DNA of 64,000 bases from Isurus oxyrinchus (taxonomy: Eukaryota), in NCBI GenBank assembly GCA_026770705.1, contig JANJGN010000015.1:95728001-95792000 (forward strand). Reading direction: 5' to 3'. The position numbers and the translations under genes were made by a program. Positions 7,321-61,719 of the stretch are shown here, one piece after another (positions within the stretch are counted from its first letter, which is position 1; each line of letters begins with the position of its first letter). The notes beneath the pieces were generated by a model, which did not search any database, had not been told where the DNA came from, and saw nothing but the letters and a program-made list of their open reading frames with translations.

Positions 7321-8461
7321 AAACAAGCTATTGAAAATAAGAGCAATATAACACTTTCATAAATGCAAGCGAATGTATTCTGCACGCAAATCCAGATTAA
7401 TCCAGAAAGCTACAAAATGTGGAGGCAGGCGCAGGGTTTTTTCTGTTTAAAAAAACGGCGGGGAATAACTAAATAATTTAAAAACCTTTTTTCAGTCATT
7501 TTCTTACACACAACAGCTAGATGACCTGGATTTTTTTTTAATAAAGAGTTTAGCTGCTTGGCTCTTAGGAGCAAATGAGATTTCCCCCTAGGTTGATAGT
7601 TTGTGTGTTTTGGGTTTGGGTATTCCACGGTGCATTGTTCTATTCACACAACATTGGTGGGAATTATTTTTCCTTTATAAAAATAAAAGCTTCAATGGAA
7701 TGTTCTGAGGATTTTTTCCCCCAAGCAAGTCCCTTTATTCTGCTATAACAGCACTACAAAGTATTAATACAAAACTTTTCACGTTTGTTTTCGAATAAAC
7801 GAAAATAGTTTTAGCACCAATTGTCCGCAGTGGCATTAATCATTACATGATTGCACTCCCTCTGGTCACTAACGTGGTAAAATTACTTGCAATACGGTTT
7901 AACAGCGACAATGGAAATATTGCAACTGCAGAGGGCAGAATGATGTGCCCATTATGTTGTGCATTGCTGTCACTACGAACCTAAGCGAATGCCCCAAGGG
8001 CAAATACACCATTAGTAAAGAAAGTTAACCCGAGGGGAAAAAATCTCAGTACAAGGTAGTTTTGCTTCATAGGTGCTTGTATGCTTTGTTGATTTTAGCT
8101 GTAGTTAATTGTGAAGTGCGTTTACAAGACTTTATTTTAATTACCTCCTTCAAACCCGATCTCTGGCTCCTCCTTTAAGTATGCCTTAAAATTGGGATTA
8201 ATGGTTGAGTTTACAGGACATTCTTAGCTTTAACTGGCAATTTTGCAGTTTATATCGATGAAACTAATATTCTGTTTCTGGGTCGTTATGAACACAAACT
8301 TTTCAATTCAATTGTTAATCACAAAAGCAAGTTTTCTAATGCTTCATTTATGTACAATGAGTTGTAAATTCTACTTCTTGTATATGGCGATCTACTACAG
8401 CATGAAGTAAGTGAAGGATTATGGTTACTAGAGGTATGACAACATTGTGACTATGTTCCTG

Positions 8462-8560
8462 GAATAAAAACTGAGAATGCCTGAAATGCTCAAGTCAGGC
8501 AGCGTTTATAGAGAGTAAGAGCTAACGTTTCAAGTTAACGATGATCCTTCGTCAGAACTT
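8462..8560 (-). mobile_element. Decayed Penelope-type terminal repeat with hammerhead ribozyme remnant
   Basis: Minus strand reads AGTT CTGACGA AGGATCATCGTTAACTT GAAAC GTT AGCT followed by the tail shared with the 14 kb element family. Confidence 0.6.
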
Positions 8561-8562
8561 AT

Positions 8563-8925
8563 TACCGGGCTAGTTACTCAAAGCCAATGGTTAATTTCCA
8601 CCAGGACAGCTGGGGATTGAAATTCAGTTAATTAAATAAAATCTGAAACAAAAAGCTAGTACCAGTAATGGTGACATGAAACTACTGGAGAGTGCGCGAA
8701 AACCTATTTGTTCACTAATACTCGTTGGGGAAAGGAAATCTGCCGTCTTCACCAGGTCTGGCTATTATGTGTCTTCAGACCTACAGCAACATGGTTGATT
8801 GTTAACTACCCCCTGAAATGGCTTAGCGAGCCATTCAGTTGTATTCAATAAAGGGCTCACCAACAGCTTCTCATGGGCAATAAACGCATGCTGTAACCAG
8901 CGAACCTACATTCTATTAGTTTATA
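8563..8925 (+). mobile_element. SINE-like repeat with an L2-like LINE tail
   Basis: Core GGAAATCTGCCGTCTTCACCAGGTCTGGC is similar to 45440-45490; tail ATGGGCAATAAA is shared with the LINE at 45.7 kb. Confidence 0.6.
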
Positions 8926-9347: not shown

Positions 9348-12190
9348 AGCATAAGACAAATTTAGAAAATAGGAGTCCTTCAAGCCTGCTCCACCATTCA
9401 ATATGATCATAGCTGATCCTCTATCTCAATGCTGTACTCCATAGAACCATATAAAAATTACAGCACAGAATGAGGCCATTCAGCCCATCTTGTCCATGCC
9501 AGCTTGTGGATACCCAGATGCCCTTTCTAATCCCACCTTCCTGAACCCGGCCCATAGTCCTGCAGTTTACAGCACTTTAGATGCAGATCCAGGTACTTTT
9601 CAAGAGTTTAGAGTTTCTGCCTCTACCACCAACTTGGGCAGCAATTTCCAGACACACAATACCCTCTGCGTAAAAAAGTTCTTCCTCATGTCCCCCCTAC
9701 ATCTTCTGCCACTTACCTTGAATCTATGTCCCCTGGTTCTAGAATTCTCCATCAAGAGAAACAATTTTATCCTGTCCACTATCCATTCCCCTCATAATTT
9801 TGTACATCTCAATCAAGTCACCTCCCAGCCTTCTTTGTTCTAAGGAAAATAACCCCAACCTATCCAATTTCTCCGCATAGCTACACTTTTCTAACCCTAG
9901 CAACATTCTTGTAAACCTCCTCTGCACTCTCTCCAGAGCTATTATGTCCTTACTGCTCTCTCCCCCCATACCCCTTGTCACCTTTAGAGTCCAGAAATAT
10001 ATTTCTTTCTCAAATATAGTCAGTGACTTGGCCTCTACCTTCTGTGGTAGAGAATTCCATAGATTTGCCACCCTCTGAGTGAAGAAGTTTCTCCTCATCT
10101 CAATCCTAAATGGGCTACCCCTTAACCTGAGACTGTGACCCCTTGTTCTATAACCCCCAGTCAGAGGAAACATCATCCCTGCATCCAGTCTGTCCAACCA
10201 TGTCAGAATTTTATACATTTCGGGGAGATCCCCTCTCATTCTTCTAAACTCCAGTGAATACAGGCCTAGTTGACCCAATCTTTCCTCATATGACAATCCT
10301 GCCATCCCAGGAATCAGCCTGGGGAATCTTCGCTGCACTCCCTCCATGGCAAGTATATCCTTTCTTAGGTAAGGAGACCAAAACTGCACTCAATACTCCA
10401 GGTGTGGTCTCACCAAGGCTCTGTATAACTGCAGTAAGACATCCTTGCTCCTGTATTCAAGCTCTCTCACAATGAAGGCTTGTCTTTTTAAGTGCTTGCT
10501 GCACCTGCATGGTTGCTTGCTTTCAGTGATCAGTGTACAAGGGCACCTGGATCCCTTTGTACATCAATATTTCCCAATCTATTATCATTTAAATAATACT
10601 CTGCCATTCTGTTTTTCCTACCAAAGTGGATAACCTCACACTTATCCAGGTTATACTGCATCTGCCATGTATTTTCCCACTCACTCAACCTGTCTAAATC
10701 AACTTGAAGCCACTTAACACCTTCCTCACCACTTACATTCCATCAAGTTTCATTTGGACAAACTGAGTGAGTGGGCAAATGCATGGCAGATGCAGTATAA
10801 TGTGGATAAATGCAAGGTTATCTATTTTGATAGCAAAAACAGGAAGGCAGATTATCTAAATGGCTTTAAATTGAGAGAGGGGAATGTGCAACAAAACCTG
10901 GGTATCCTTGTACACCAGTCGCTGAAGGTAGGCATGCAGGTGCAGCAGGCGGTAAAGAAGGCAAATGGTATGTTGGCCTTCATAGCCAGAGGTTTCAAGT
11001 ACAGGAACAGGGATGTCTTGCTGCAATTGTACAGGGCCTTGGTGAGACCACACCTGGAATATTGTGTGGAGTTTTGGTCTCCTTATCTGAGGAAGGATGT
11101 ACTTGCTATAGAGGGAGTGCAACAAAGGTTTCCCCGACTGATTCCTGGGATGGCGGGACTGACATATGAGGAGAGATTGAGTCAATTAGGATTATATTTC
11201 CTGGAGTTCAGAAGAATGAGTGGGGATCTCATAGAAACCTATAAAATTCTAACAGGACTAGATAGGGTAGATGCGGGAAGGATGTTTCTAATGGTGGGGG
11301 AGTCCAGAACCAGGGGTCACAGTCTGAGGATATGGGGTAGACCATTTAGGACTGAGATGAGGAGAAATTTCTTCACCCAGAGTGTGGTGAGCCTGTGGAA
11401 TTCATTACCACAGAAAGTAGTTGAGACTAAAACATTGTATGCTTTCAAGAAGGAGTTAGATATAGCTCTTGGGGCAAAAGGGATCAGAGGATATGGGGAG
11501 AAAGCAGGAGCAGGCTATTGAGTTGGATGATCAGCAATGATCATAATGAATGGCAGAGCAGGCTCGGAGGGCTGAATGTCCTGCTCCTAGTTTCTATGTT
11601 TTGATGTCATCAACAAACTTGGAAATGTTACATTTGGTTCCCTCATTCAAGTCATTGATATATATTGGGAATAGCTGGGCCCAAGCACTGATCCCTGAAG
11701 TACCCCACCAGTTACTGCCTGTGATTCCAAAAGAGACCCATTTATGCCTACTCTCCGTTTCCTGTCTGCTGACCAATTCTCAATCCATGTCAATGTATTA
11801 ACGTCCCCCACCACCCAATCCCATCCCATCCATGTGCTTTAATTTTACACACTAACCTCTTATGTGGGACTTTATCAAAAGCTTTCTGAAAATCCAAGTA
11901 CACCACATCGGCTGGTTCTCCCTTATCTATTCTTTTAGTTACATCCTCAAAAAAGTCCAGTCGATTTGTCAAACATGATATCCCTTTCATAAACCCATGT
12001 TGACTTTGTCTAATCCGATTGAAATTTTCTAAGTGTCCTGTTATCATATCTTTTATAATAGACTCTAGCATTTTCCGTACTACTGATGATAGGCTAACCG
12101 GTCTGTAATTCGTTGTTTTCTTGCTCCCCTTTTTTAAAAATAGTGGGGTTATATTTGCCACCCTACAATCTGCCGGGATTGTTCCAGAAG
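9348..12190 (-). mobile_element. CR1 LINE (RT region) with nested CR1 insertions at ~9440-9950(-) and 10752-11600(+)
   Basis: ORF 9739..10389(-) is a fusion of two CR1 C-termini; ORF 11790..12161(-) has NYRPVSLSSVV and VYLDFQKAFDKVPH; FVDDIK at ~11600. Confidence 0.9.
10752..11600 (+). mobile_element. 5'-truncated CR1 insertion with an uninterrupted 255-codon ORF2 C-terminus (10754..11521)
   Basis: LSEWANAWQMQYNVDKCKV, ALVRPHLEYCVEFWSPY, RRNFFTQSVVSLWNSLP, then CR1 3' UTR and TTTCTATG tail; splits the minus-strand host CR1. Confidence 0.92.
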
Positions 12191-13414: not shown

Positions 13415-13478
13415 TGGGTGAAATAAAAATAAAATAGTGCGGATGCTGGGTGAAATAAAAATAAAATAGTGCGGATGC
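13415..13478. repeat. Perfect 32-bp tandem duplication
   Basis: TGGGTGAAATAAAAATAAAATAGTGCGGATGC twice, at the end of a decayed Penelope-type repeat (~13425-13590) inside a CR1 fragment. Confidence 0.9.
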
Positions 13479-14034
13479 TGGACACCTGAAATAAAAAAAA
13501 CAGTAAGTGCGGGGGAATAAACTCAACAGGGCATTATCTGTGGAGAGAGGAACCGAGTTAATGTTTCGAATCCAATATGGTTCTTTGAATCTGTACTACA
13601 CCTCCTCCAAGACTAATATATCCTCCTTGACTCTCCAAATGGGCTCTGACCAAGAGTCTTTATAACAGCAGCATCGCTTCCATCCCTTTGTATTCTGTCG
13701 AGGGTACCCAATCCCCTGGATGGGCGATTGATCTTCTCGAGAGCTGCAGACGGTGACTCGAGAGAAATGGACCCTGTTGGTGCAGTTTGAGTCTGTGCAA
13801 TATCCCAGCTAAAGCATTTTTCTCTTGAAACAGGTGAAGAATAATTGACGGCTAGCCAGTCAGCCAGTAGCAATAAGAGTATGAAGGAAGGATTGAACTT
13901 CACAGCAGCTTGTGGTATGTGGAACATGTTGGTTGAGGAATCAACTGAAGGTCAAAAAGCGGATAATTTTTAAAATAAGAGACTGCTGCCTGAGTGGCAC
14001 AGCGGGTTGCCAAGACCAGGTTAATGTAATGAAA

Positions 14035-14316
14035 AAACAAAAACAGAATTACCTGGAAAAACTCAGCAGGTCTGGCAGCATCGGCGGAGAAGAAAAGAGT
14101 TGACGTTTCGAGTCTTCATGACCCTTCGACAGAACTTGATTTCGAGTCCAGGAAAGAGACAAGTCTCCTGGACTCGAAATCAAGTTCTGTCGAAGGGTCA
14201 TGAAGACTCGAAACGTCAACTCTTTTCTTCTCCGCCGATGCTGCCAGACCTGCTGAGTTTTTCCAGGTAATTCTGTTTTTGTTTTGGATTTCCAGCATCC
14301 GCAGTTTCCTTTGTTT
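14035..14316. mobile_element. Fold-back Penelope-type non-autonomous element with two opposed hammerhead ribozymes
   Basis: 120-bp inverted arms (14034-14153 and 14166-14285); 14-bp TSD TTAATGTAATGAAA at 14021-14034 and 14317-14330. Confidence 0.85.
14183..14221 (+). ncRNA. Minimal type I hammerhead ribozyme motif with variant core (mirror copy on minus strand at 14098-14136)
   Basis: Stem I AGUU/AACU; core CUGUCGA(A); stem II GGGUC/GACUC; GAAAC-GUC with a loopless palindromic stem III; predicted cleavage after C14217. Confidence 0.7.
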
Positions 14317-14607
14317 TTAATGTAATGAAAGTTTCGAACTGTGGCTGGGAGCATCCTCCATGAAAGTGTTTCGTATGAATTCAACCCATCACTTAGTGTC
14401 CGCAAGGTGATAGCATAGCTAGCCGTAATTATATTTACCGTTTGGAAATCGCTTTCGGAGATGCTATATTGATGACCTGTGTGAAACATGAAAAAGATTC
14501 ACATTGGCACATGAAAAGCATTCCTGTGAGAGTGGGCTAGAGGCACATTGAATAAACGGTGCATAGCCTCCAGTGTAAGCTACGCCCGAGCTGCGAGTAT
14601 TTAATGA

Positions 14608-23815: not shown

Positions 23816-24317
23816 AAATAGCTTTACAAAAAAAAAAATTAAATCCATACATTATTTATTGGCACTTTAGAGTCAACGATATGGGACCTATACTACAAGT
23901 CAATTCAGATGGATAACGTGCAATGAAAAAGTGGCTTTCCTGTTCACAAATTTTCAGGCCTACACAAGATTTAACACACTGACTGGCCTTCTTATTTAGG
24001 AGAGCTTATGGTTACTTAAAGTTCTCAGAACACAGGGCAAAAAAAATTCCGGATTTGAGCTTTCCTCAGAATACTTTGCTAATGACATTTTTCTGCTGCA
24101 GGGTTGGCCAGCTGAGATTATAGCAATGACCCTTAGAAGTTCTATAACAAACTAGCACACCTGCCACTCTATAACCTATTTTTTAACGAATGACGTTGCA
24201 AATCTTCAAACCTGGAAGATATTTACACCATTTTGTGCTCTTTATTTTGGATTTCCAGAAGCCACAGTATTTTGATTTTGTCTTATGCTCCAATTGGCTG
24301 CCAAGTTTCCTACATTG

Positions 24318-25368: not shown

Positions 25369-25664
25369 ATTGCAACAACGCTACACTTCAAAAATACTTA
25401 ATTGCCTGTAAAGCACTGTGGTAGCTCCTGAGGTTGTGAATGGCACTGTATAAATACAAGTTCTTTCTATCCTAATATTGTTTAAGTCACTGCTTCTTCT
25501 GTCTAGGAATGCTCACCTCATACTGGAATGAAGAGGTGCTGTTCTTCTTTCCGACATGATTTTCATTTGTCTCTTGTAGCCTGTTCACCTTCATTACTAT
25601 GTTTCCCATCTTGTTACTAATCAAGTGTTTGCTAAAACGTGTGTTCACTCTATTTTCTCAAACT

Positions 25665-25820
25665 TGGACTTACATCTTCCAGTTCTGATGGAAGGTAATT
25701 TACCTGAAATGTTAACTCAATTTCTCAATTCACAGTTGCCGCCTGACTTGCAGAATTGTCCCTGCATTCTTTTGTTCTTCATCTCCGATTTCTAGCATCC
25801 ACACGACTTGCTTTTATTGA
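25665..25820 (+). mobile_element. Decayed Penelope-type terminal repeat with hammerhead remnant
   Basis: AGTTCTGATGGAAGGTAATTTACCTGAAATGTTAACT followed by a decayed family tail (GATTTCTAGCATCCACA). Confidence 0.55.
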
Positions 25821-30258: not shown

Positions 30259-30546
30259 CCATTCCCTTGGAAGAAAGAAAGCTTCACTAAAATGAAGGTT
30301 TCTTTACAATGGCTTCAAAATTTCTTTACAAAAGTACTTAACATCATAAAATCCTAACAAATGACATTACATACCTTTTCGTCTTGTTGCTCAAGTACAC
30401 ACATCACATTATAAAGTTACAAAGGTTTAACCAAAAAAAAGTCAGCATATGTAACAAGTGGGAGTAGCAGGATTTAAACAGCATAGAATTACCATAACTC
30501 AGATTCTCCCTTTTCTCCTATACTCTTTCTTTGAACTCTGAATAGA

Positions 30547-30578
30547 ACTTACCTGGCAGGGGAGAGACCTTCATCGCG
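30547..30578 (+). pseudogene. U1 snRNA 5' fragment forming the head of the LINE
   Basis: ACTTACCTGGCAGGGGAGAGACCTTCATCGCG versus vertebrate U1 nt 3-34 as I recall it (ACTTACCTGGCAGGGGAGATACCATGATCACG): 22/23 in the first part, 28/32 overall. Confidence 0.8.
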
Positions 30579-30598
30579 TTTCTGCCAGGGAAAGAGCA

Positions 30599-32117
30599 AT
30601 GGCTATAACCAGTCAAACCCCTTACCATGGGGTACCTAACACCATCCGAGTCATGGTGAAGGATAACGAGCAAGGAACAGGAATGGATAGGAACTTCTTC
30701 ACGAAGAGGATCCTATTCAAGCTGTGTGGTTTTGAGGCTGCGGATATCTACTGCCTACAGGATTTCCCCAGCGCTGGTTTCTTTGATGTGACCTTCAAGC
30801 ATGTGGCAGCTTGTGTCAAACTCCTGAAGGTGTTTGAGGAAAAGAAAGACCTGCCAGAAATGAAGATCCTGACGGCGCAGCCGCTCTTTGTTCTACCGTT
30901 GCATCATGAACGGGTTGCAACGATGCATCTGTACAACCCCTACGTCCCTGTCACTGACGTGCTCACCTTCCTTACCAGGTACTTCGATAAGGTTGGGAGC
31001 TGCACTGAAGTTAAAGATAATTTGGGGATCTGGACATGTAAACACCAGGTTAAGGTAACGCTCAAGACCGACGGTAAGGGAGCTGTTTTCCACCCCCCTT
31101 CCAGATTCGCTATTGGGGGAAGCCGTGGTTACCTTGCCTACGCTGGGCAACCCAAACTTTGTCACTCATGCGGCAAGTCTGGTCATGTGGCGGCCAATTG
31201 CAGTGCTGTCCTCTGCAAGAACTGCAAAAAGGAAGGGCACCAGACAAAAGATTGTAAACAGACTAAGTGCTGCAACCTGTGTGGCGAGGCAAGTCACCTC
31301 TACAAGACCTGCCCCAAACGTTGCTGTACTTATGCACAGGCAGCTAAAGCCAACGAGGGGGAAGCAGAAGAAATGCCTCGTGTCACTCCAACCACCAAGG
31401 CCCCCAGGGAAAACATTGGGACAAAGGAGGACACAGAGAGACAAGGTGGAGGAAAAAATTGAGGCAGCAGACAGCCAATCAACAGCACTGCCCCCTGAAC
31501 CTCCCACTCCTCAGGAGAGCGAATCAACGGAGGAGGAGGAGGCAGCAGTGGGAAAGCAGCAGGGGGAGTGGCAGCTGGTGAAGAGAGCCAAAAGGAAGAA
31601 GGGGCTAAAAAGAAACCAAGCCACCTCCCAGACAAGAGTCAAGAGGCGTCTCCTATCCGACACGGATAACAAGAGCAGCAGCTCTTCGGACGAAGAAGGG
31701 CCAGGGCGGCGCCAACAGAAGAAGCGGCAAAACGCTAGGGGGTTGGAGGACGAGTCACCCAACCTCCCGAACATTGGTGACAATGAGGAGACCAGCGCAC
31801 CCCAACTTGGCCCACAACCCAAAGAGGCCAGTGCACCACAACCCCAGGAATCTGGGAGCAGTGAGGTGCTCAGCGCACCCCAGCTCCAGGAAGCCAGGAG
31901 CAGCAACGCCCCAGAGGGGGAGAGGATTGGAGAAGCTTCTCCAACAGAGGACATTTCAAACCCCGCTCTCTGCACGGACCCCCAGATGCCACCCGAGCAG
32001 AACATCTCCAATGGGGAGGTTCAGGACGCTTTCCTCAGCCCATCCCAAGTGAAGCAATTTGAGCACACCACGGGCATGAAGAAACTCTCAGAGACAACAG
32101 GTTTGGTAAGCGACTAA
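30599..32117 (+). pseudogene. Tx1-type ORF1 (ZCCHC3-like N-terminal region, three zinc knuckles, low-complexity tail), one frameshift near 31430-31460
   Basis: CHSCGKSGHVAANC, CKNCKKEGHQTKDC, CNLCGEASHLYKTC in 30599..31462; continues in frame 31113..32117 (WQLVKRAKRKK). Confidence 0.85.
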
Positions 32118-32127
32118 CTGCTTTAAA

Positions 32128-34121
32128 ATGGGTGTAAAGATTGTATCCATAAATGTGCGTAGCATTAAATCTACTACGCGATGTGTTGCGACCTTGGACT
32201 ACCTTGCCAAGTCAAAGCTGACCTGCTGTTTCTACAGGAGTGTGCGATACCGCACCTCAGCTCCTAAAGTCAATGGTCACAATGGTGGTCCCATGGGCCA
32301 TCGATCTGGTCGGGAGGAAACGACTCTCGTTCCTCTGGCCTGGGGATTCTGCTGCGGGGAGGCAGCTTCACCGTCTCTCAGGTTAAGGAGGTGGTGGGCG
32401 GGCGCCTCCTCGTAGCAGACGTAATGTATAAGAATGCTCCACTCCGTTTAATTAACGACTGCGCCCCGTCCCAAGGGGCTGAGCGGCTGGAGGTTTTTCA
32501 GCAGCTCCCACTGCTGCTGGCAACCTCCAGGCCGGTGACTTCAACTGCATCATCGATGCGGCTGGACGATCCGGCAGGGCCGACAGCAGATTGGACGCTA
32601 CATCCAGATCCCTGATGGAAACAGTAAAGGATGCCAAGCTGCACAATGTCTTCAGCAACCCTGCAGATGGAGCGCAGCGTAGATACACCTGGTCGCGGCC
32701 TGACGGGTCTGTCTGTTCCAGGATAGACTTACTGTTTGTGTCCCGCGCATTTGCAGTCAGATCCACTGACGTCAAGCCGGTGTTCTTCTCTGACCACTGC
32801 CTCCTACTGGCTGACTGCCACTTAGAGAAGGACCAGAGGGTTGGCAGGGGGACATGGAAGCTAAACATGCAACTGCTGACCCCAGAGAACATTGAGGAGC
32901 TCAAGAGGGATTACAAAGGTTGGAGAACCATGAAACCCCACTTTGAGTCACTGACACACTGGTGGGAAGCGATCAAGGGAAACATCAAGAGGTTTTTCGT
33001 CCTCAAAGGCACCCAGAAAGCTAGAAAGGAACAGAGGGAAATGTCCCGACTCCAGAAAAACATGCAGAATCTGCTCTGGCTGCGGTCGATGGGGGTCGAT
33101 ATCAAGGAGGAACTCCAAGAGGTGAAGAGCCAGCAAGCCTCGCTCTTTGCCTCAGAGGCCTCCAAGATCATCTTCCGTTCCAGAGTCTGCTCTGTAGAGC
33201 AGGATGAGACGTGCTCACGTTTCTTCTTCCAAAAGGTACACAGAGAGAGCTCTGTGATCAGCAGCCTGAAGAAAGAAGATGGCTCAGTTAAGTCATTGCA
33301 ATCTGACATCTTGAGGATTAGCAAATCCTTCTATGCCGGATTGTATGACTTAAAGCCCACAGACAGCACGGCCTCCCAGTCCTTCCTGTCCTCTATCACG
33401 GAGGTCTTAGATGACAGTACACGGGAGAGTCTGGACAAAGCGCTAACTCCTGACGAACTGACTGAGGCCCTTGAGTCCTTCGAGAAGAGTAAAACTCTCG
33501 GAAGCGACGGCTTGCCGGCGGAGTTGTATTCGGCTCTGTGGGACTGGATCGGCCCAGACCTGCTAGAAGTGTACGACAGTATGCTCCTGGCCGGCAGTAT
33601 GTCAGAATCCATGAGGAAAGGCATTATCACCCTCATCTACAAGCACAAGGGGGAAAGGGAGGAAATTAGAAATTGGCGACCCTTTTCACTGTTGAATGTG
33701 GACTATAAAATTCTGTCCAAGGTCATCGCCATTCAAGTCAAATCCGCTCTGGAGTTGGTGATTCACCCTGACCAGACCTGCACTGTGCCGGGCAGGAAGA
33801 TCTCTGACAGCCTCGTGCTGCTCAGGGATACGATTGCCTATGTACAGGACAGGGGTGTGGATACCTGCCTCATCAGCCTGGATCAGGAGAAGGCCTTTGA
33901 CAGAATATCGCACACCTATATGGTGGATGTGCTCTCCAAAATGGGGTTTGGGGAGGGAATTCGCAATTGGATCCAACTGCTCTACACTAACCTCAGTAGT
34001 GCAGTCTCAATCAATGTGTAGCAGACTAGCACTTTCCAAGGTCCAGGACTACATGCTGAGGGACACAGTTAAGCTTGGGGCAGCCGCCGCAAAGGCGCAA
34101 TGGGGAAGGGTCGCTGCCTAA
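32128..34121 (+). pseudogene. Tx1-type ORF2 (APE endonuclease, N-terminal RT, extreme C-terminus), frameshifted and deleted
   Basis: KIVSINVRS, YTW, SRIDLLFV, FSDH (APE); NWRPFSLLNVDYKILSKVI, SLDQEKAFDRISH (RT); jump at ~34017 to CSRLALSKVQDY...AQWG. Confidence 0.9.
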
Positions 34122-47775: not shown

Positions 47776-48979
47776 TGGTCAATAAATTTCTATTTAATAC
47801 TATTCATTGCTTTTTAGTATTTGTCATTCTTTAGAATTTGTCACAGTTTCATATTTATCACTCATTAAGGAAGTAGTTTACCGAGCCACAGATGCTGATG
47901 AGCAAGGCCAATATATATATAGTGCTACCTTGTTATAAATGCATCATATATAATAGGCAAAATGAGTGTGCTTGCAATAAGTGATGGGCACCGTATTGCC
48001 TTTCCTTCAATACTTCTGGATCAATATCTTGGAACACGCTGCCTAACAGCATTGTGGGAGTACCTTCATCAGAAGGACTGTGCTGGTTCAAGGATGTGAG
48101 TCAGCACCATCTTTCAAGGGCAATTACAGAGGGGCAATAACCACTAGCAATGCCCTTAAACCAAGAATTATTTTTTTAAAAACAGGTTAACATTTTGGGC
48201 ATGTGACCTGTTTCAGGTATACAGTCTGTGCCGTTGAAGTTCCACGACCTCAAATGCCAATAGACCCACTGTGTTTTTCCAGCATTTTCTGTTTTTATTT
48301 TACAATATTTAAGTAACGGTGTCGAATTTCAGACTGAGAACTTACATAATCAATGTGGAAACAAATCAAAGCTGTGACATGAGGGTGCCCATTCATTTAA
48401 AAGTTAAATATTTCTAAAATTACTGCATGCGCTGTGGGAAATTTGCAGAATGACGCTCTTTCATTATTCTCAGAGTGCAGAATATATTGCACAATTATGA
48501 TTGTACAGAAATTGCATATGGATTGAGGTAATAATAAAACTGAAATGCCATGTCTGTGGTATTTAAAAAGAAGTCCGTAGAAATCCACTAAATGGATGAC
48601 TCAACAGAGGAATGATAAATGAGAGCAGGACCTCCCTGGAGATATTAATCCCAGCGGTCACGAGCTGTTCACAGCTGTTTGTGCTATAAAACATAACATT
48701 GCTGCTTGTTGTATTTTTGCCTCTGAATGTTGTAAGGTGATGGAGAGGACTGCTGACAACAATGCTCAAATGTTATCGATGTGCAGGTGGTCCAGTGTCC
48801 AAAAGACAGGGCTTTATATTTCTAATTGTGGGCACTCCGTCAAGGGTGGAACAGTCTGTGCAGGTCAGCAGTACAATTCCTGCATTGTTGGCTTTGTGGC
48901 CGGAACACAATAATAGCTACAGTGTTCAGTATGGCAGCCATTTTTATTGGTTGTGAGCAATGCTTTGCTTCCAGTGGCA

Positions 48980-51504: not shown

Positions 51505-51869
51505 ATTTTGGAACAAAAGACTGTTACAATTTGGGGGTAGACTTAGTAAGTAATAAAGGTTAAAAGGAAACACCAGGTTTGTAGTAAAAAATAAGATGGC
51601 ACTGGAAACTGTTAAAGATTTCCTGCAAGTGGAATAGATGTCCCTGACGATTTTACAAGGGTCCCAAAAGCCAGGCTAATTGGATTGGCAAGTAAATTAA
51701 AAGTAGGACTTCCTGCCAAAGCTAGGAAGGCAGAGATAATTGAAGAGATGGCACAGAATTTAAAACTGGAAGGAATACCTGAAAGACCAAGTTCTCAAGG
51801 GGTTATTCATTGGAATGGGCTCAAATTCAGTTGCAACTAAAAAAAATGGAACCAGAGGTAGCAGAAAAA

Positions 51870-51985
51870 GAAAGGGCAGAGAAAGAAAAAGAAAAGGAAA
51901 GAGAAAGGGTATTCCAAAGAGAACAGGCAGAAAGGGCAGAGAAAGAAAAAGAAAAGGAAAAAGAGAGAGCATTTCAAAGGGAGTT
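51870..51985 (+). repeat. 60-bp imperfect tandem repeat encoding a Glu/Lys/Arg coiled coil in gag
   Basis: ERAEKEKEKERERVFQRE and ERAEKEKEKEKERAFQRE. Confidence 0.8.
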
Positions 51986-52709
51986 AGAAATGGCAAAATT
52001 AGAAAAGGAGGAAAGAGAAAAAGAGAGAGAATTCCAGCTTAAAATGCTGACAGTTAAAAAAGAGACACCAGTCGATGAGGCAGAGCTTATTTCCAGATCA
52101 GAACCCAATGGGGAGAAGTTTAAATTTGCACAAGCTCTTCCAAAATTTGAGAAAAGGGATGTTGAAGCATTCTTTATTTCATTTGAGAAGATAGCTAAAC
52201 AGATGATCTGGCCAAAGGAAAACTGGACATTGCCCATGCAGAGCAAATTGACAGGTAGAGCACAGGAAATTTATGCTTCATGCCAGAGGAGGCTTCCAGA
52301 GATTATGATGTGGTGAAAAAGGCCATTATGAGTGCATATGAGTTGGTCTCTGAAGCATACAGATAAAAGTTTTGAAATTTAAGGAAACAGCCTGGGAAAA
52401 ATTGCATTGAATTTGAAAGGATTAAGCAATGTAGTTTTGATGGGTGGATACAAACATTAGGAGTTGAAACTACCTATGAAATTCTCAGAGACCATTCTCT
52501 TGGAAGAATTTAAAAACTCCCTACCTTCTGTAATAAGAACTCATGTTGAAGACCGAAGGGTTGCAACTGCTATACAGGCAGCAGTAATGGCTGATAATTA
52601 TGAGCTGATCCATAAAACTAAACCTCTTTCCCATCACCTCCGTGAATTTGAAAAAGATAGAAAATGGGAGAGTGTAAGGAAGGCAAGTAGCCAGGGTAAA
52701 GAATGGATA

Positions 52710-52959
52710 ACAAAAACAAAAACAGAATTACCTGGAAAAACTCAGCAGGTCTGGCAGCATCGGCGGAGAAGAAACGAGTTGACATTTCGAGTCCTCATGA
52801 CCCTTCGACAGAACCCAGTTCTGTCGAAGGGTCATGAGGACTCGAAACGTCAACTCTTTTCTTCTCCGCCGATGCTGCCAGACCTGCTGAGTTTTTCCAG
52901 GTAATTCTGTTTTTGTTTTTGTTTTGGATTTCCAGCATCCGCAGTTTTTTTGTTTTTAT
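52710..52959. mobile_element. Fold-back Penelope-type element with two opposed hammerheads, inserted in gag
   Basis: 13-bp TSD TAAAGAATGGATA (52697-52709, 52960-52972); ~105-bp inverted arms around a 3-nt spacer at 52815-52817; plus-strand hammerhead 52817-52855. Confidence 0.87.
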
Positions 52960-54072
52960 TAAAGAATGGATAGCTGGGAATATCTTGAGAGCTCCTCCCC
53001 AGATCAGGAAGGAGGGTCTTGAGGATGGAGGTAAAACTCAAATCCTAGGTGTTTCCATTGTAATAAAGTGGGACACATTTGTTCAGAATGCTGGAAGTTG
53101 CGAACGAAGCCATGGGACTTATCGGAGTTTGCAAGAGTGAGTCCGAAAAGGGAATTCAAAAAGAAAATGCCATAGATTAAATTGTAGCTTTAACTACAAA
53201 TAAGGGTCTGGAGGTAAACATTGCTGTGAATGCAGGTGAAGTGAGTAAGGTAGATGAGAGATGTAAAGGGGTTTTGTCTAAAGGAAACATAACTCCTTTT
53301 TCATAAAATGATGCAGCTCAACCCATAACCATATTAAGGGACATAGAAGCCACTCAAACTCTTTTGCTGGAGGAGGACCTCCAGAGAGTTCAATGAAAGC
53401 TGAAGTATTGGTAAATGTGGTAAGTGGAGAGTATATCCTGGTTCCATTGTACAAAGTGCAAGTGGCGTGTGATTTGTTGTCTGGATCAGTGGTTAGTGGA
53501 GTGGTAAGAAATTGCCCATGGATGGAGTTGATTTTCTCCTGGGAAATGATTTGGCAGGAGTGAATGTTATAGTTTTACTCGTACTTGCAAAAAATCCGAG
53601 AGAGGCTAAAGAGACAGAGCAGTTACAAGAACAAGTTCCTGCTATTTTTCCATTGTATGTGGTGACTAGAGCAATGGCTAATCAAAGTCCATCACCAGAG
53701 GTCAAAGTAATACTACCAGCAGAGTAGCCAAAAATTTCTTTAAGGATGAAGATAATTCGAAGGAAGTGTTTGGCATGCCTACATTAATTGAGGCTCAGAA
53801 AGCAGTCCAGAGTTAAAAAAAATAGCACAGTCAGCTCACACTGAAGCTGAGGTGGAAGGAGTTCTGGAGTGCTATTACATTAAAAATGGAGTTCTGATAA
53901 GGAAGTGGAGACACCCTCACAGACCTACGGATGAGGAATGGATGGTTGCCCATCAGATAGTGGTACCACCCAATATCATAAGGAGATATTGCGAGTAGCA
54001 TAGGAAATTCCTATAACTGGATATGTAGAAACACGGAAAATCAAGCATTGATAAACAGGCATTTTATCTGGC

Positions 54073-54820
54073 TGTTGGTCCAGCTGAGTTATTTAAAAAA
54101 CCCAGAGAGAATCTTTAAACAACTATAATATCCTATAGTTTTAAGTGTTATGTTTGAGAAGCAACTCTAAATTCAGGAATCAGAGGTTTCTTGAGGTTCT
54201 ACATTAAACTAAATGAAACATTGCATTAATTTACATAAGATATATATATATATACATATAGCTACAAATTACTACTATCATAACTTTTAACAAATTCTCA
54301 AACTAATTTCTATTAAGGCAACAGCAACCCATAGACTTAACCAGACACCAGACAAACCCCTTTCACATTACGCATTCAAATTGAGATTCTTTTCACTTTG
54401 GTTCCTGTGGGGTCAGTTGGAGGCTTACAGCTGCCTTTGATCTTATATTGCCTCTGCCTGCACACACAAAACTGCTGAAGTTATACCTGGCGCTGCTCAT
54501 TGAATATAAATTCTCATTGTATCACCAGCATCTTTGAACTACACCTTTTAACAATAAAACCCCTTTCGTAGTACTATTTTTATTAGTAATATACCATATT
54601 GCTTGGTATCTGCTAGGTAGGTGTTAGTTTTGACCCACGTCTTGAATGCTCTATTCAAAAAATGCAAATGCATACTATCTCTCTTACATATCAAAACTAG
54701 TACACATCAAAGCACCCAGACAAGGTTTTAATATAATTAAGACACACTCAGCAAGTAAACCTTTAGTTTAAAAGAAAAATATTTTCCAATAATATTATAT
54801 ACATTAATAGCTTCATGACA
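54073..54820. mobile_element. Solo LTR inserted in the integrase zinc-binding region
   Basis: TG...CA termini; 5-bp TSD CTGGC (54068-54072, 54821-54825); host frame RHFIW|PTLHKYVVQFCK rejoins across it. Confidence 0.88.
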
Positions 54821-56150
54821 CTGGCCAACACTTCATAAGTATGTGGTGCAATTTTGTAAAATGTGTCATACATGTCAGGTAGTAGTAGGTAAACCTCAAC
54901 ATGTAATCAAACCAGCACCTTTAATACCTGTACCAGTTTTTGAAGAACCGTTCAGTCAGGTATTAGTAGATTTTGTAGGACCATTACCCAAAACGAAAGC
55001 AGTACATCAGTATATCCTTACAATCATGGCTGTGACAACCCGATTTCCAGAAGCTATTCCTTTAAGGACAATTAGAGCTAAGGCGCTAATGGAAGAGTTA
55101 GCTCAGTTTTTCATTCATCATGGCCACCAACTGAAATACAATCTGACCAAGGCTATAACTTCATGTCTAAAGTTTTCCAGGTCATAATCGGCAGCTTGGG
55201 TATCAAACAACTAAAGTTTACCACCTATCACCCACAGACACAGGGAGCTTTAGAGTGATACCATCAGACACTCAAAACCATGATTAAGACCTATTGCCAT
55301 GAATACCCAAAGGATTGGGACAAAGGATTCGATTTCTTACTATTTGCTACTAGAGATTCTCCAAATGAATCTGCTGGATTTAGTCCATTTGAATTGATCT
55401 ATGGTCATGAAATAAGAAGTCCATTAAAAGTGATTAAGGAAAAGTTCCTAAAGCATTAAGACAAATCCCCCATGTTGGATTACATGTCCATGTTTCTAGA
55501 AAGACTCACAGGAGCATCTAAAGTAGCACAAGAGCACTTAAACATTTCCCAAGTGAAAATGAAAGAGTAGGCAGACAAACATGCTACAACTAGAATGTTC
55601 CAAGCAGGAGAAAAAGTATTGGTATTGTTGCCTTTGCAAGGTGATTCCTGAAAGCGAAGTTCAGTGGCCCCTACAAGCTGGTTAGGAGAGTTAGTAAAGT
55701 GACTTATCTGATAGATACTCCTGAGCGTAGGAAGAAGAAAGAATTATGTCATATAAACACACTGAAGCAACATCATCTCAGGGAAGATGATGGGAAAGAG
55801 CAAGTATGCCAGGTCGTAGGAATAATAGAGGATGACAGAGACAGTAAGAGTAAGGTGGAGGGAGGACAGTGTACAAAGCGAACATCCTACAATTCAACTA
55901 GCCAATGTGAAAATATTGGGACAGTCAGATACTGTGTTTTCATATTTAGAGGAAGGACCACAGGAAGATCTAATAAGGTTAGTTAGGAAGTATGAAGGAA
56001 TTTGTAGGGATACACCTGGAAGAACTAAGTTAGCTAAACATGATGTGAATGTAGGAGACTCAGTGCCAATAAAACAACATCCTTATTGGCTGAACCCAGA
56101 GAAACAAGCTCAGGTAGAAACAGAGATCCAATATACAAGCTCATAAGACT

Positions 56151-57945: not shown

Positions 57946-60182
57946 TGACAAATGCAAGGCCACAGCAGAGGGCTTCTGGTGAGCAGGCCCATCTGGAGGA
58001 TAGGCCAGCAGGACAGGCCAGGCCTGAGGGTAGGGTGGGGGTGGGGGCGGGGGGGCAGTGTGCCCCTCGTTTTTCAGACGACTGCTTTGCTGTCCTCCTC
58101 AAGGAGGTGCAGCATGGTGGGAGGTGCTGGTCCCCCAGGATGGGAGGAGGAGGCCCCCCCACATGACCAAACTTGCCTGGGAGGAGGTGGTAAGTTCCCA
58201 TGACGTGGTGCAGTGCACCTGGGTCCAGTGTTGCAAGCGCTTCAACAACTTGTTGTGCTCTGGCAGGGTGAGTACCATGTTGGCATTGGGCATTTAACCC
58301 AGCAGGTCAGCTTACCCCGCTGCTGCCACCCCCTCCCCCCCGCAAAGTCCAAGTGTCGTGACTGCATTGAATCATCGACGGCATTCGTCCTTTGCTGGGT
58401 GGGCAAGCAGATACTGCCCATGCTGAGGTCAGCCTGAGAGGGTGATGAGATGTGTTTTTACCCCACAGCATGTGTTACACTGAGTCCCACATAACTAGTG
58501 TGGGGGCAACCTGGAAGAGCTGTACCTAGGTGCAGTGTTAGAACTCCAGGACATGTCCTAGTCAGAGTGATGAGATGGTGGGAGTGGATCTTCAAAGTGG
58601 CATGACAACGAACCGTCCGCTACGTTCTGTGCTCCACATGCTTGCACCTCTTTGCTATGAAATAATATACCGTGTGGTGCCTAATGTGATGTAGGCAACA
58701 TTTGTCCAAGTAGGGGGTGAAGAGCAGGCCTAGCATCTTTCTGTGGGTGCTCGGCAGCAGTGGGGTGAGGAGGCACTGAAGCCCTGATATTTCCCACTCT
58801 GGTTGGGGTGGGCCGTGCGCGAAGAGAGTCCATGTGCAATTTGCAGTAATCAATGCTCTTCTCTCATTTTCAGGAGAAGAATACTCATAACGTGGCAGAG
58901 CATGCGAGGACTGATTGCGGCCAGGCGCAGATTGCCATTCTAAGCCATTTCGAGCAGGAGGCCTTGGATCTGGAGAGGCGCCATGCACCCAGGTCCACTG
59001 GTGTCAGTGAGGCTGGGGTGCCACAGCCAGGTATTTATGCCCAACAGTGAGGTCAGCATTGTCCTCCCAACAGCCATAGCACTGCTGAATGTTAAACAAT
59101 TTAATTTTGCAACATGGCTTGACTATTGGTTATGGAAGGATGAGTGCATAATGATCCGGGGGACAGGGATGGACTTTGTCATTGTCCCCATGCTAAGTGA
59201 TCCACTGTCCTTGTTCTTCCTTTCAGCATCATCGGAACAGGGCCGGGAGGAGGAGCAGTAGAGGCCCCCTCTCACACCTGAGGAGCCTGAAGTCTCAACA
59301 GCATCACACCATTTCTGCAAGGCAGGCACCAGCGCAGATAGTTGGGAATTTGAACAACGGCTCATGTCCCGGGACACAGTGGTGAAGGCACTTCACAGTT
59401 GCTGGAGGAGCTGGCAGAGACAGAGAGTGCCCATGGCGCCAGCAGTCGGAGGACTGCAGGGGACTAGGCACATGCTCAGTCGGTGGCTGATGATGTGCCT
59501 CAGGAGTTGTCTGCGATGCAGCAGGTGCAAGAAATGCGGCCGGGTGTGCAGGAGCATCTCGGGGAGATACATGAGGCTATGCTTGACTTGGTCTCCGTGG
59601 CGGAGGAGTCTAAATGGACGCTCGCTGAAGCAATGAGCCACAAGTCCGAGCACCATGCATCCTCCATGGAGAGAGTGGCGAATCTCATGGAGAGCCTACT
59701 TCAGGAGACCCATCAGGGCTTCCTGGGGATGCGCTCTGACCAGGAAGCCTTCACATCGACATTGACCTCAGATGATCAGTGCCTGTGTGGGAGATGGTGT
59801 TGGCGTCAGGTTTCCCAGCTCAGTGCTTATCCATCCACAGTGAGCAGGGAGGTCCAAAGATACATCACGTTGGCGCAGCAGCTGCCTGTCATCTCTGCAG
59901 GCTCCTCTCAGGGCTCTTTGGATGAGGGTGGCAGCTCCACCTCCCCCCTCTCCCAGTGACTGTATCATCCGGTGAGGCTGCGATGACTGGGGAGAGGCCA
60001 GCTGTGGAACTGGCAGCTCCCTTCCAGGGAGGGCTCACACAAGCTCCATGGGCCAGAGGATGACCACCAAGGTCATCGAGGCCAACAGGACAGCAGAGTC
60101 AGCAGGCTGTCTCAGATGCCACTTCAAGTGATAGGGCAGCACCAAGACGTAGCACCTGGAAATGAAAGCATAAGGCACCTTA
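57946..60182 (+). pseudogene. Harbinger Myb/SANT-like DNA-binding gene, three putative exons (to ~58267, 58874-59030, from 59227), disrupted
   Basis: APRFSDDCFAVLLKEV, AWEEV, CTWVQCCKRFNNL then AGG|GTGAGT; TTTTCAG|EKNTHN...PQP then GTATTT; acceptor CCTTTCAG at 59226; coiled-coil ORF 59483..59959. Confidence 0.75.
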
Positions 60183-60518
60183 GGCACACCAGGGGTTTTT
60201 CACTGATGGTTTTTTGTTGGCCCGAGATGAGGCCCTTATGATTTTATTTGATTTGTAATGCTTGTCCTTTTTTTATAATAAGCTGCTTTGTTTCACACAT
60301 TAAATTCAGATATGTCACCATGGCTGAGGGTGCCTCTTTTCTTCTGCAAGTGTATGGTTTCCAAAACTGTAATGAGTGCTTTTTTGGACATTCAGCTTTA
60401 ATAACAATGCCCTTAGTTACTGTTGCTAACCTAGCAGATTTTGCACTTAGGTGTCGAGTGTCGAGCCGACAACCCAGGCTTGTCCTGGTGGACCATCTGT
60501 GGTGTGCTAGCTAAAGGT

Positions 60519-61719
60519 TTATTGGATTAAAGCCTCTCGGGTATCCCTGCCTCCCTGGAGTATGCTCAGGTCAGCGTCTACCCCTTCAGCATTTCCCTGT
60601 GCGTGCTCATCCTCGGACTCACTGCTGGACTCATCGTGTGCAGCTGCAGCCACTGCGTCGACATCTTCATCGTCTACTGCACAAAATTGTGGAGAGCACA
60701 GCATGCAATCACTATCACCGACACAATCTGGGGTGCTGGAGTTCGCCCCCTGAATGGTCCAGGCATCGGAAGCGCATCTTGAGAAGACCAATGGTTCTCT
60801 CCCCAACAGCCCTGGTGGAGGCGTGGTTCCTGTTGTACCACTGCTTAGCTTCTGTTCTTGAGTGGCGGAGAGGCATCATGAGCCACCTTCTGAGGGGATA
60901 GCCCTTGTCACCCAGCAGCCATCCATCAAGCCGGGCTGGAGCACTGAAGAGTCCCAGCAGCTGGGAGCTTCTGAAGATGTAGGCGTCATGGGAGCTGCCT
61001 GGGTACCTTGCATAGACTTGTAAAATCAGCATCCTGTGATCACACCATCTGCATCTTCATGGGGTGGAAGCCTTTCCTGTTGATGAAGGCTCTAGGCTCA
61101 CCTGCTGGTGCCTTGATGGCCATGTGTTTGCAGTCTATTGCACCCTGGACGTGGGGAAAGCCAGCAATTGCCGCAAAGTCTCTGGCTCATTGTGTCTGGC
61201 TTTCCTGGTCCCAACGGAAGTGGATGAAGGTCAATGCATGCCTAAACAGAGCTCCTGTAACCTGCTTTACACAACTATGGACAGCTGATTGGGAGACACC
61301 GCAAAGATCACCCACCGAGCCCTGGAAGAAGCCAGAGGCATAGAAGTTGAGGGTAGCTGTGACCTTTAGAGCCACTGGCATGGGGTGTCCACCTATACAG
61401 TTAGGGGAGATCTCAGGCCCAATCATCTGACAGATATAGTTGACTATCTCCCTTGAGAGACGGAGCATCCTTCGGCACTGCACCTCAGACATATTGAGGT
61501 AGCTGCTTTGCTGCCTGTGTACCCTGGCAGCAGGATAGTGGTATCTTCTGCAGCACCTTCTGCCTTTGACTTCCTCTTGACACTGTGCCCCTTGTGACTG
61601 TGCCTGTCCTCCCAAAGGTGGCTCCCCTGGAGGCTGAATGTGCACTCTGGCCTCCTCCCCTTCCTAGCCCTCCCTTCCTCTTCAGAGGAGCTGCCTCCAC
61701 TGGACAGTTCAGCCCCCAT
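60519..61719 (-). pseudogene. Harbinger DDE transposase (HARBI1-like), frameshifted
   Basis: LKVTATLNFYASGFFQGSVGDLCGVSQS, ARYPGSSHDAYIF, WLLGDKGYPL, HASTRAVGERTIGLLKMRFRCLD. Confidence 0.92.

Follow-up and report, generated by a model that had tools for sequence, protein, structure and literature searches.

A 282-bp fold-back insert in Isurus oxyrinchus DNA is probably a stub of an abundant Penelope-like element carrying two hammerhead-like motifs

The stretch of Isurus oxyrinchus DNA analysed here (64,000 nucleotides in full, hereafter the window) is rich in repeats. A Pfam search was run on all 193 of the 193 window frames of at least 75 aa, a threshold by which shorter exons would be missed, and it found LINE-type RT fragments and no host-gene domain among these frames. 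Some of the larger repeats can be given provisional labels from their domains. An L1/Tx1-type element, so labelled on this basis, occupies positions 30542-34021, and has ZCCHC3-like RNA-binding domains and a zinc knuckle in ORF1 together with an AP endonuclease and an RT in a truncated ORF2. A decayed Gypsy-type LTR element, likewise labelled from its domains (SCAN and integrase), lies at 51783-56000. The GC-rich block at 58900-61700 contains a DDE_Tnp_4 transposase fragment (60.7-61 kb) that we read as Harbinger-like. There are also inverted repeats of other kinds, including one of 237 bp that is 92% complementary with its halves 363 nt apart (45-881), and a nested pair at 10035-11420 (445 bp at 80% and 107 bp at 82%) that represents opposed LINE 3' fragments.

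The subject of this report is a much more regular inverted repeat near 14 kb, whose parts are listed in Table 1 together with the related copies in the window. The insert proper spans 282 bp (14035-14316). Its two TSD halves are identical at 14 of 14 positions, and its two arms are 100% complementary with 12 nt between them. All coordinates originally given for the insert, its perfect 120-bp arms and its 14-bp TSD were reproduced. The insert is asymmetric in that the 31-bp tail following the right arm is absent from the left arm. Furthermore, homology of the left arm to the wider repeat family appears to extend approximately 5 nt into the junction, and contigs from the sequencing runs described below place an upstream loose end of the family at 14169.

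Table 1. Parts of the 14-kb insert and related copies of the repeat in the 64,000-nucleotide window.
Feature	Positions	Strand	Basis
Left TSD, 14 bp, AT-rich	14021..14034	.	Sequence identity with right TSD
Inverted arm, 120 bp, without tail; element 3' end on minus strand	14034..14153	-	Arm alignment
Minimal type I hammerhead-like motif, core CUGUCGA (A6 = U)	14098..14136	-	Descriptor match
Junction, 12 nt, holding 5-bp stem and 2-nt loop	14154..14165	.	Sequence
Direct arm, 120 bp; 5'-truncated 3' end of element	14166..14285	+	Arm alignment
Minimal type I hammerhead-like motif	14183..14221	+	Architecture compared with PMC4209133
Tail, 31 bp, right arm only	14286..14316	+	Recurrent family ends at 14284/14285 and 14307
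Right TSD	14317..14330	.	Organism B contigs begin matching exactly at 14317
Decayed single-arm relic, core CUGACGA	8440..8569	-	Profile match
Decayed single-arm relic, tail duplicated in 32-bp tandem	13415..13598	-	Profile match
Faint relic, tail only	24232..24278	+	Profile, E 0.0013
Decayed single-arm relic, other subfamily; stem II AGGUA/UACCU	25676..25816	+	Profile match
Older fold-back: 178-bp insert, 14-bp TSD, 46-bp inverted arm, 2-nt loop	39783..39988	+	Alignment
Faint 3' relic	48249..48301	+	Profile, E 0.044
Sister fold-back: 250-bp insert, 13-bp TSD, 3-nt loop, CUGUCGA in both arms	52697..52972	+	Alignment

Each arm carries a motif with the layout of a minimal type I hammerhead, so that one motif lies on either strand. 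Both strands encode stem I (AGUU/AACU), stem II (GGGUC/GACUC) and GAAACGUC, as the original prediction had described. Stem II includes one G-U pair and is preceded by an extra A. For the plus-strand motif, stem I is formed by 14183-86 and 14218-21, the core by 14187-93 and stem II by 14195-99 and 14205-09, with the extra A at 14194, GAAACGUC at 14210-17 and a predicted cut after 14217. The features expected of the minimal type are therefore present, namely stems I and II, the extra base, GAAA, NUH and a palindromic stub of helix III. The core had been written as CUG--GA. The letters on either side of the gap are as given, but the gap conceals a U at conserved position 6 (14190 in the window), and the core accordingly reads CUGUCGA, not CUGANGA, in all four arms of the 14-kb and 52.7-kb copies. 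A CUGANGA core is retained in both arms of the 39.8-kb copy and in the 8.5-kb copy. Given that U6 is common to two separate insertions, it came from the source copy.

These motifs closely resemble the metazoan PLE type I hammerheads of Cervera and De la Pena 2014 (PMC4209133), which have a stem I of 4-5 bp and an extra base before stem II, and occur as opposite-strand pairs 100-700 bp apart that are tied to truncated PLEs. Shared with that group are the 4-bp stem I, the extra base between positions 9 and 10.1, the G10.1-C11.1 pair, the palindromic ACGU in place of helix III, and the spacing of the opposite-strand pair. The focal motifs differ from the published ones in having a U at position 6, which places them outside CUGANGA, and a stem II of 5 bp. 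A search with hammerhead covariance models had been envisaged as a check, and an Rfam scan of the window gave no hammerhead match at E values up to 1; the hammerhead label is consequently based on agreement of the motif with the descriptor of the minimal type I. The scan returned seven hits, all to miRNA-precursor models, which we dismissed as generic hairpins; those near 10.7 kb arise from the nested inverted repeats at 10035-11420.

Pairing of the two stems was assessed across nine window rows that are related and partly decayed. In total, 72 of 81 cells are paired (88.9%), and controls in which the rows were slid gave 14-48%. Changes on both sides of a pair were seen at three of the five stem II pairs and at none of the four stem I pairs, in one row each among these nine non-independent rows, and the level of covariation in the nine related rows was reached by 13 of 500 shuffles. 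Thus, stem II pairing across copies fits descent from an ancestral ribozyme, albeit weakly, as the rows are related and partly decayed.

Both focal motifs are predicted, from their sequence, to be inactive passengers. Published mutants at position 6 lose most activity (PMC9901934; PMC3088659). Single mutants in the CUGA turn have low activity (PMC9901934), and a natural A6C variant cleaves at less than 0.1 per min, which is low but detectable (PMC3088659). Our literature search found no activity measurement of A6U. Monomers of the minimal PLE hammerhead are reported not to cleave, and dimers to cleave only slightly (PMC4209133). Two motifs on opposite strands would be unable to form the dimer in cis that minimal PLE hammerheads require. 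The original description of two hammerhead ribozymes is therefore unlikely to hold if it is taken to mean working catalysts.

Related copies were collected with a profile search of the window, which gave 12 hits at eight loci, of which five have a single arm. The profile was built from nine window rows that themselves account for 9 of the 12 hits, and five shuffled controls produced two hits (E 0.77 and 0.99). The TSD-flanked copies reported at 39.8 kb (14-bp TSD) and 52.7 kb (13-bp TSD) proved to be real, as did the single-arm relics at 8.5, 13.5 and 25.7 kb; two further relics, both faint, lie at 24.2 and 48.3 kb. Among 3000 random pairs of window positions, 3 showed an exact direct repeat of at least 13 bp. 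The 39.8-kb fold-back has the canonical CUGAUGA core, with GAAACAUC in its right arm and without the 5' strand of stem I in its left arm. Its 52.7-kb counterpart sits within a SCAN-bearing Gypsy-type gag fragment, which is the gag-like part of the element at 51783-56000. In the 25.7-kb relic, two pairs of stem II are altered on both sides. The tandem duplication in the tail of the 13.5-kb relic is exact over 32 bp (13415-13478).

The abundance of the family, its ends and the state of the focal site in another genome were examined by using sequencing runs that contain matching sequence. There are 24 such runs, of which four derive from organism A (likely the source sample) and 14 from a relative, organism B, which shares 62% of words. 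Contigs of four runs were aligned to the right arm, the tail and the right flank. In one of these (X1), 75,069 contigs aligned, nearly all of them on the arm, and the summed arm depth was roughly a million times that of the flank. This ratio should not be taken as a copy number. Even with overlap allowed for at 31-fold, a value of approximately 40,000 remains, and the summed depth supports only the statement that the family is very abundant. Loose ends recur in all three DNA runs at 14284/14285, which corresponds to a tail-less end, and at 14307, which corresponds to a variable tail end. On the 5' side of the motif, depth falls approximately 16-fold, with 31.7 million reduced to 2.0 million in the first bin. 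A drop of this kind is expected from 5' truncation, and subfamily divergence contributes to it. Only one opposite-strand joint appears among the 15 joints listed, and contigs break at palindromes. No difference is listed to the left of 14204 in the run contigs, where divergent 5' ends have probably been clipped.

At position 14204 itself, G accounts for 88% of depth in the organism A run and for 98%, 98% and 97% in the other three runs. The A allele of the focal copy makes up approximately 12% of depth in organism A and approximately 2% in organism B, which hints at a burst of one subfamily in organism A after the two lineages split. A DNA pattern search of viral contigs had 0 matches, and the metagenome searches yielded 0 and then 3 matches, the latter being chance matches of 21-24 nt in apparent bacterial genes that were dropped.

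The right flank of the insert is present in organism B, where it differs by 18 substitutions and one gap in 884 bp (approximately 2%). In both of the organism B runs that were aligned, the orthologous contig matches from 14317, which is the first base of the right TSD, and continues for 457 or 309 letters past this point, unmatched to the tail. Because these contigs start precisely there and carry on without matching the tail, the site is very likely empty in organism B, as judged from the right-flank contigs.

Of the origins offered in the original prediction, an extremely truncated Penelope insertion fits best, and the existence of an abundant, non-coding family derived from Penelope is supported. 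We consider it probable that the focal insert is a stub of a very abundant Penelope-like element (PLE), formed at one insertion and carrying inactive motifs. An inverted, 5'-truncated copy stands head to head with its partner in each of the three TSD-flanked copies, and truncation is variable, with inserts of 282, 250 and 178 bp accompanied by TSDs of 14, 13 and 14 bp, respectively. This arrangement matches the insertion unit of EN+ PLEs (Arkhipova et al. 2013, PMC3846280; Craig et al. 2021, PMC8557442) in its inverted 5'-truncated head-to-head copy, junction palindrome, 31-bp tail on one arm, TSD and AT-rich target. As described in these sources, Penelope insertions have adjacent inverted pLTRs with a 31-bp tail on one of them and TSDs of 8-10 bp, and their junctions are palindromic, mostly head to head and read as the outcome of self-priming (PMC3846280). 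An inverted 5'-truncated copy with a tail of 30-40 bp at one end is also reported (PMC8557442), and an inverted truncated copy with a one-end tail is given as the general PLE insertion unit (PMC8557442; PMC8969392). The focal insert differs from the EN+ PLE unit in keeping only about 150 nt of terminal repeat on each side, without an ORF, and its family differs from rotifer PLEs in TSD length (13-14 bp here versus 8-10 bp there; PMC3846280).

Membership in the Penelope group rests on structure, because two protein searches were empty and the parent ORF was not found. One search took as its query a frame of 42 aa from the 39.8-kb arm, and the other a read-through of 44 residues that lies upstream of the 25.7-kb relic and that also had 0 Pfam hits. 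Neither produced candidates, which is a weak negative in both cases. No GIY-YIG domain occurs among the 193 window frames of at least 75 aa, as expected for a stub, and the three RVT_1 hits in the window belong to LINE-type fragments at other places. A segment of approximately 130 bp (25540-25675, plus strand) immediately precedes the 25.7-kb relic on its upstream side, and the last 35 bp of this segment resemble the upstream loose end of the family. The part preceding these 35 bp bears a resemblance to what we take to be the opening portion of an ORF of a Neptune-type PLE, containing a frameshift. Should it be such an ORF start, a short permuted unit exists, in the order ORF start, linker, hammerhead and tail.

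Comparison of the three fold-backs suggests that the structure was likely made during a single insertion event. An enzyme with PLE RT and GIY-YIG endonuclease would nick AT-rich DNA with a stagger of 13-14 nt and prime cDNA synthesis at the tail end, and synthesis would then stop once it had reached, or slightly passed, the hammerhead's 5' edge. The next step is somewhat more probably a snap-back than a second priming event: the cDNA end would fold over through a loop of 2-3 nt and copy itself, thereby producing an inverted arm of identical sequence, with its end at the tail boundary. Finally, the far end would be joined to the second target end. By this route, copying by the enzyme would have covered just the final 150 bases of its RNA, likely leaving a stub whose ribozyme motif would have been inherited from the terminal repeat.

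The centres of the three fold-backs lie 0, 0 and approximately 20 nt 5' of the hammerhead edge. Those at 39.8 kb and 52.7 kb have loops of 2 and 3 nt, respectively, at the 5' edge of the motif, and the 14-kb junction is located approximately 20 nt further 5'. Since the junctions differ in all three, each fold-back likely formed at its own insertion. The arms of a copy also share bases specific to that copy. Position 14204 is A in both focal arms and G in both 52.7-kb arms, and in the 39.8-kb copy the two arms agree at 41 of 47 positions, compared with 36 of 47 between either of them and the focal arm. Snap-back is favoured because arms share copy-specific bases and the loops are short. However, only three fold-backs were compared, gene conversion could also have equalised the arms, the 52.7-kb right arm is nearer to the focal arm (101/102) than to its own left arm (100/102), and the left arm at 39.8 kb stops far short of the tail boundary.

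Two alternatives alter one step of this scheme. A dimeric PLE protein might nick both strands so that each end primes a cDNA, starting at either of two sites with or without the tail, before the ends are joined head to head. In the anole PLE, the protein does cleave and extend both strands, and its RT can start at either of two sites between which the tail lies (PMC11167929). Two of the three fold-backs have a left arm that stops at the tail boundary, and the focal left arm retains approximately 5 nt more upstream homology than the right arm. We nevertheless regard priming from both ends as less likely than snap-back, given that copy-specific bases are common to both arms, that the left arm at 39.8 kb ends at neither start site, and that a hairpin with a loop of 2-3 nt can be drawn for each of the three centres if the focal right arm later lost 4 nt. 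The other alternative concerns the template, which could have been a short, non-autonomous, retrozyme-like tandem derived from pLTRs and moved in trans. The fold-back would still be made at insertion, and this possibility is therefore nested within the scheme that we prefer; it has a reasonable though minority claim. Organism A contigs include head-to-tail joints that run from the tail end to the motif start (14307 to 14179 and to 14185), homology drops sharply 5' of the motif, and hammerhead tandems derived from pLTRs, with a mean of 363 bp, are reported from the one chondrichthyan examined in a preprint (10.64898/2026.07.22.740005). However, each of the few tail-to-start joints listed is represented by one contig with the depth of a single locus, which is what ordinary partial PLE tandems would give, and no head-to-tail tandem unit occurs at any of the eight window loci. 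Moreover, a self-processed circle is unlikely for the focal subfamily, whose motif is minimal and has a changed core. The non-LTR retrozymes of animals (Cervera and De la Pena 2020, PMC7229834; preprint 10.64898/2026.07.22.740005) are similarly short, non-coding and pLTR-related, with type I hammerheads and TSDs longer than 4 bp. Unlike the focal insert, where the motifs are head to head, minimal and changed in the core, they form head-to-tail tandems and circles, with motifs on one strand that are mostly canonical and active. The retrozyme-like origin first entertained is not supported for the fold-back itself: the focal locus has no head-to-tail unit, and the motifs are on opposite strands in all three fold-backs.

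The remaining alternatives depart further from insertion by a PLE enzyme. Calling the fold-back a mobile element with two ribozymes implied that it moves as a unit, in the manner of a MITE or of a hairpin-RNA element. This view draws on the likeness of the 14-kb and 52.7-kb copies, which are 97-99% alike over 102 nt and have the same outer end of the left arm. We find this improbable, as the centres differ in all three fold-backs, the one-sided tail makes the ends asymmetric and leaves no terminal inverted repeats, TSD length varies (13, 14 and 14), five of the eight window loci have a single arm, and the motifs are unable to dimerise in cis. A MITE or fold-back DNA transposon in the strict sense was rejected on account of the asymmetric ends, the TSDs of 13-14 bp and the differing centres. 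Finally, a palindrome with arms that are 100% identical, which none of the aligned contigs spans, might be suspected of being an assembly artefact, a suspicion to which we attach almost no weight. The TSD is exact over 14 bp, an organism A contig crosses from unique flanking sequence into the tail and covers 24 nt of it with no differences, organism B contigs begin at the TSD, and the two sister fold-backs have diverged arms.

The original prediction also held that read-through RNA would form a long hairpin that masks the ribozyme motif, and this view is supported by folding calculations. The insert RNA has a predicted folding energy of -239.8 kcal/mol (z -32), a stability equalled by 0 of 100 shuffles. 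Whichever strand is transcribed, the antisense arm precedes the sense motif, and the pairing probability predicted for stem II is 0.0 in all eight transcript prefixes, as opposed to 0.77-0.80 in a lone arm. Read-through RNA is therefore predicted to present the antisense arm first and to fold as a 120-bp hairpin. In this regard the insert resembles ADAR-edited fold-backs, of which Porath et al. 2017 (PMC5625713) describe palindromic Harbinger repeats in a frog and Penelope elements in a lizard, the latter with over 40,000 A-to-I edited sites; in each case one insertion can form a long perfect hairpin. Editing was seen for those repeats, unlike the hairpin of the focal family, which is known here from DNA and folding.

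One run (X19), guessed to be RNA, has 3,807 aligned contigs, with the repeat family among them, and shows no cover in most unique-flank bins between 14329 and 15063, which is no evidence either way. CpG decay at 14214/14215 is 0.5% and 1.2% in this run versus 7.5% and 8.9% in DNA, and A>G at 14246 is 10% versus 2-4%. The run has two A>G places, equal to the count in DNA of the same organism, although these data are contigs, in which strand is not shown and editing is poorly shown. A few expressed loci could explain both the low CpG decay and the A>G at 14246. Across 14214-14249, CpG decay in X19 is 4- to 17-fold below that in DNA of the same organism at four CpG places, the palindromic ACGU included, and the expressed copies may be young or few given this low decay.

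A more ambitious reading is that the host has adopted the insert as a regulatory hairpin, with a function as a Dicer or ADAR substrate. The perfect 120-bp stem would suit such a role, and there is precedent in the heavy editing of Penelope in the lizard and of palindromic repeats in the frog (PMC5625713). We judge this reading highly improbable, in that the insert appears absent from a relative only approximately 2% diverged and so is without conservation, and the number of A>G places in X19 does not exceed that in DNA, with the reservation that contigs are poor for scoring editing. We return, then, to the stub of a PLE as the preferred identity of the insert. If copies in introns or UTRs are many, they would add perfect hairpins to host RNA, for which lizard Penelope and frog Harbinger are again precedents (PMC5625713).

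The kind of structure described here is already in print, both as the inverted truncated PLE unit and as opposite-strand pairs of minimal hammerheads (PMC3846280, PMC8557442 and PMC4209133), and the focal locus is ordinary, being one among very many stubs. Our literature search, which covered few subscription papers, found no paper on this repeat family in cartilaginous fish. The sole lead that emerges from the focal locus is the mobile A6U subfamily. The family offers a test of the role of the hammerhead, as a subfamily with a changed core inserted at least twice in the window, and in vitro, hammerhead mutants had no effect on insertion by the anole PLE (PMC11167929). It also offers a test of how inverted ends arise, because thousands of young junctions with empty sites in a close relative are to be expected. 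We speculate, as a possibility that is more doubtful than probable, that a young Penelope subfamily lacking A6 kept inserting and that the perfect hairpins of 50-120 bp that each event can leave may be a main source of ADAR and Dicer substrates in the host. If true, this would provide natural evidence from within a genome that Penelope elements can move without cleavage by their ribozyme, and junctions would be numerous enough to separate snap-back from two-ended priming. A further observation concerns the segment of the arm at 14258-14295, where a splice-donor-like AG/GTAATT and acceptor-like pyrimidine-CAG motifs are visible by eye, and intronic copies of the arm could seed cryptic splicing through them.
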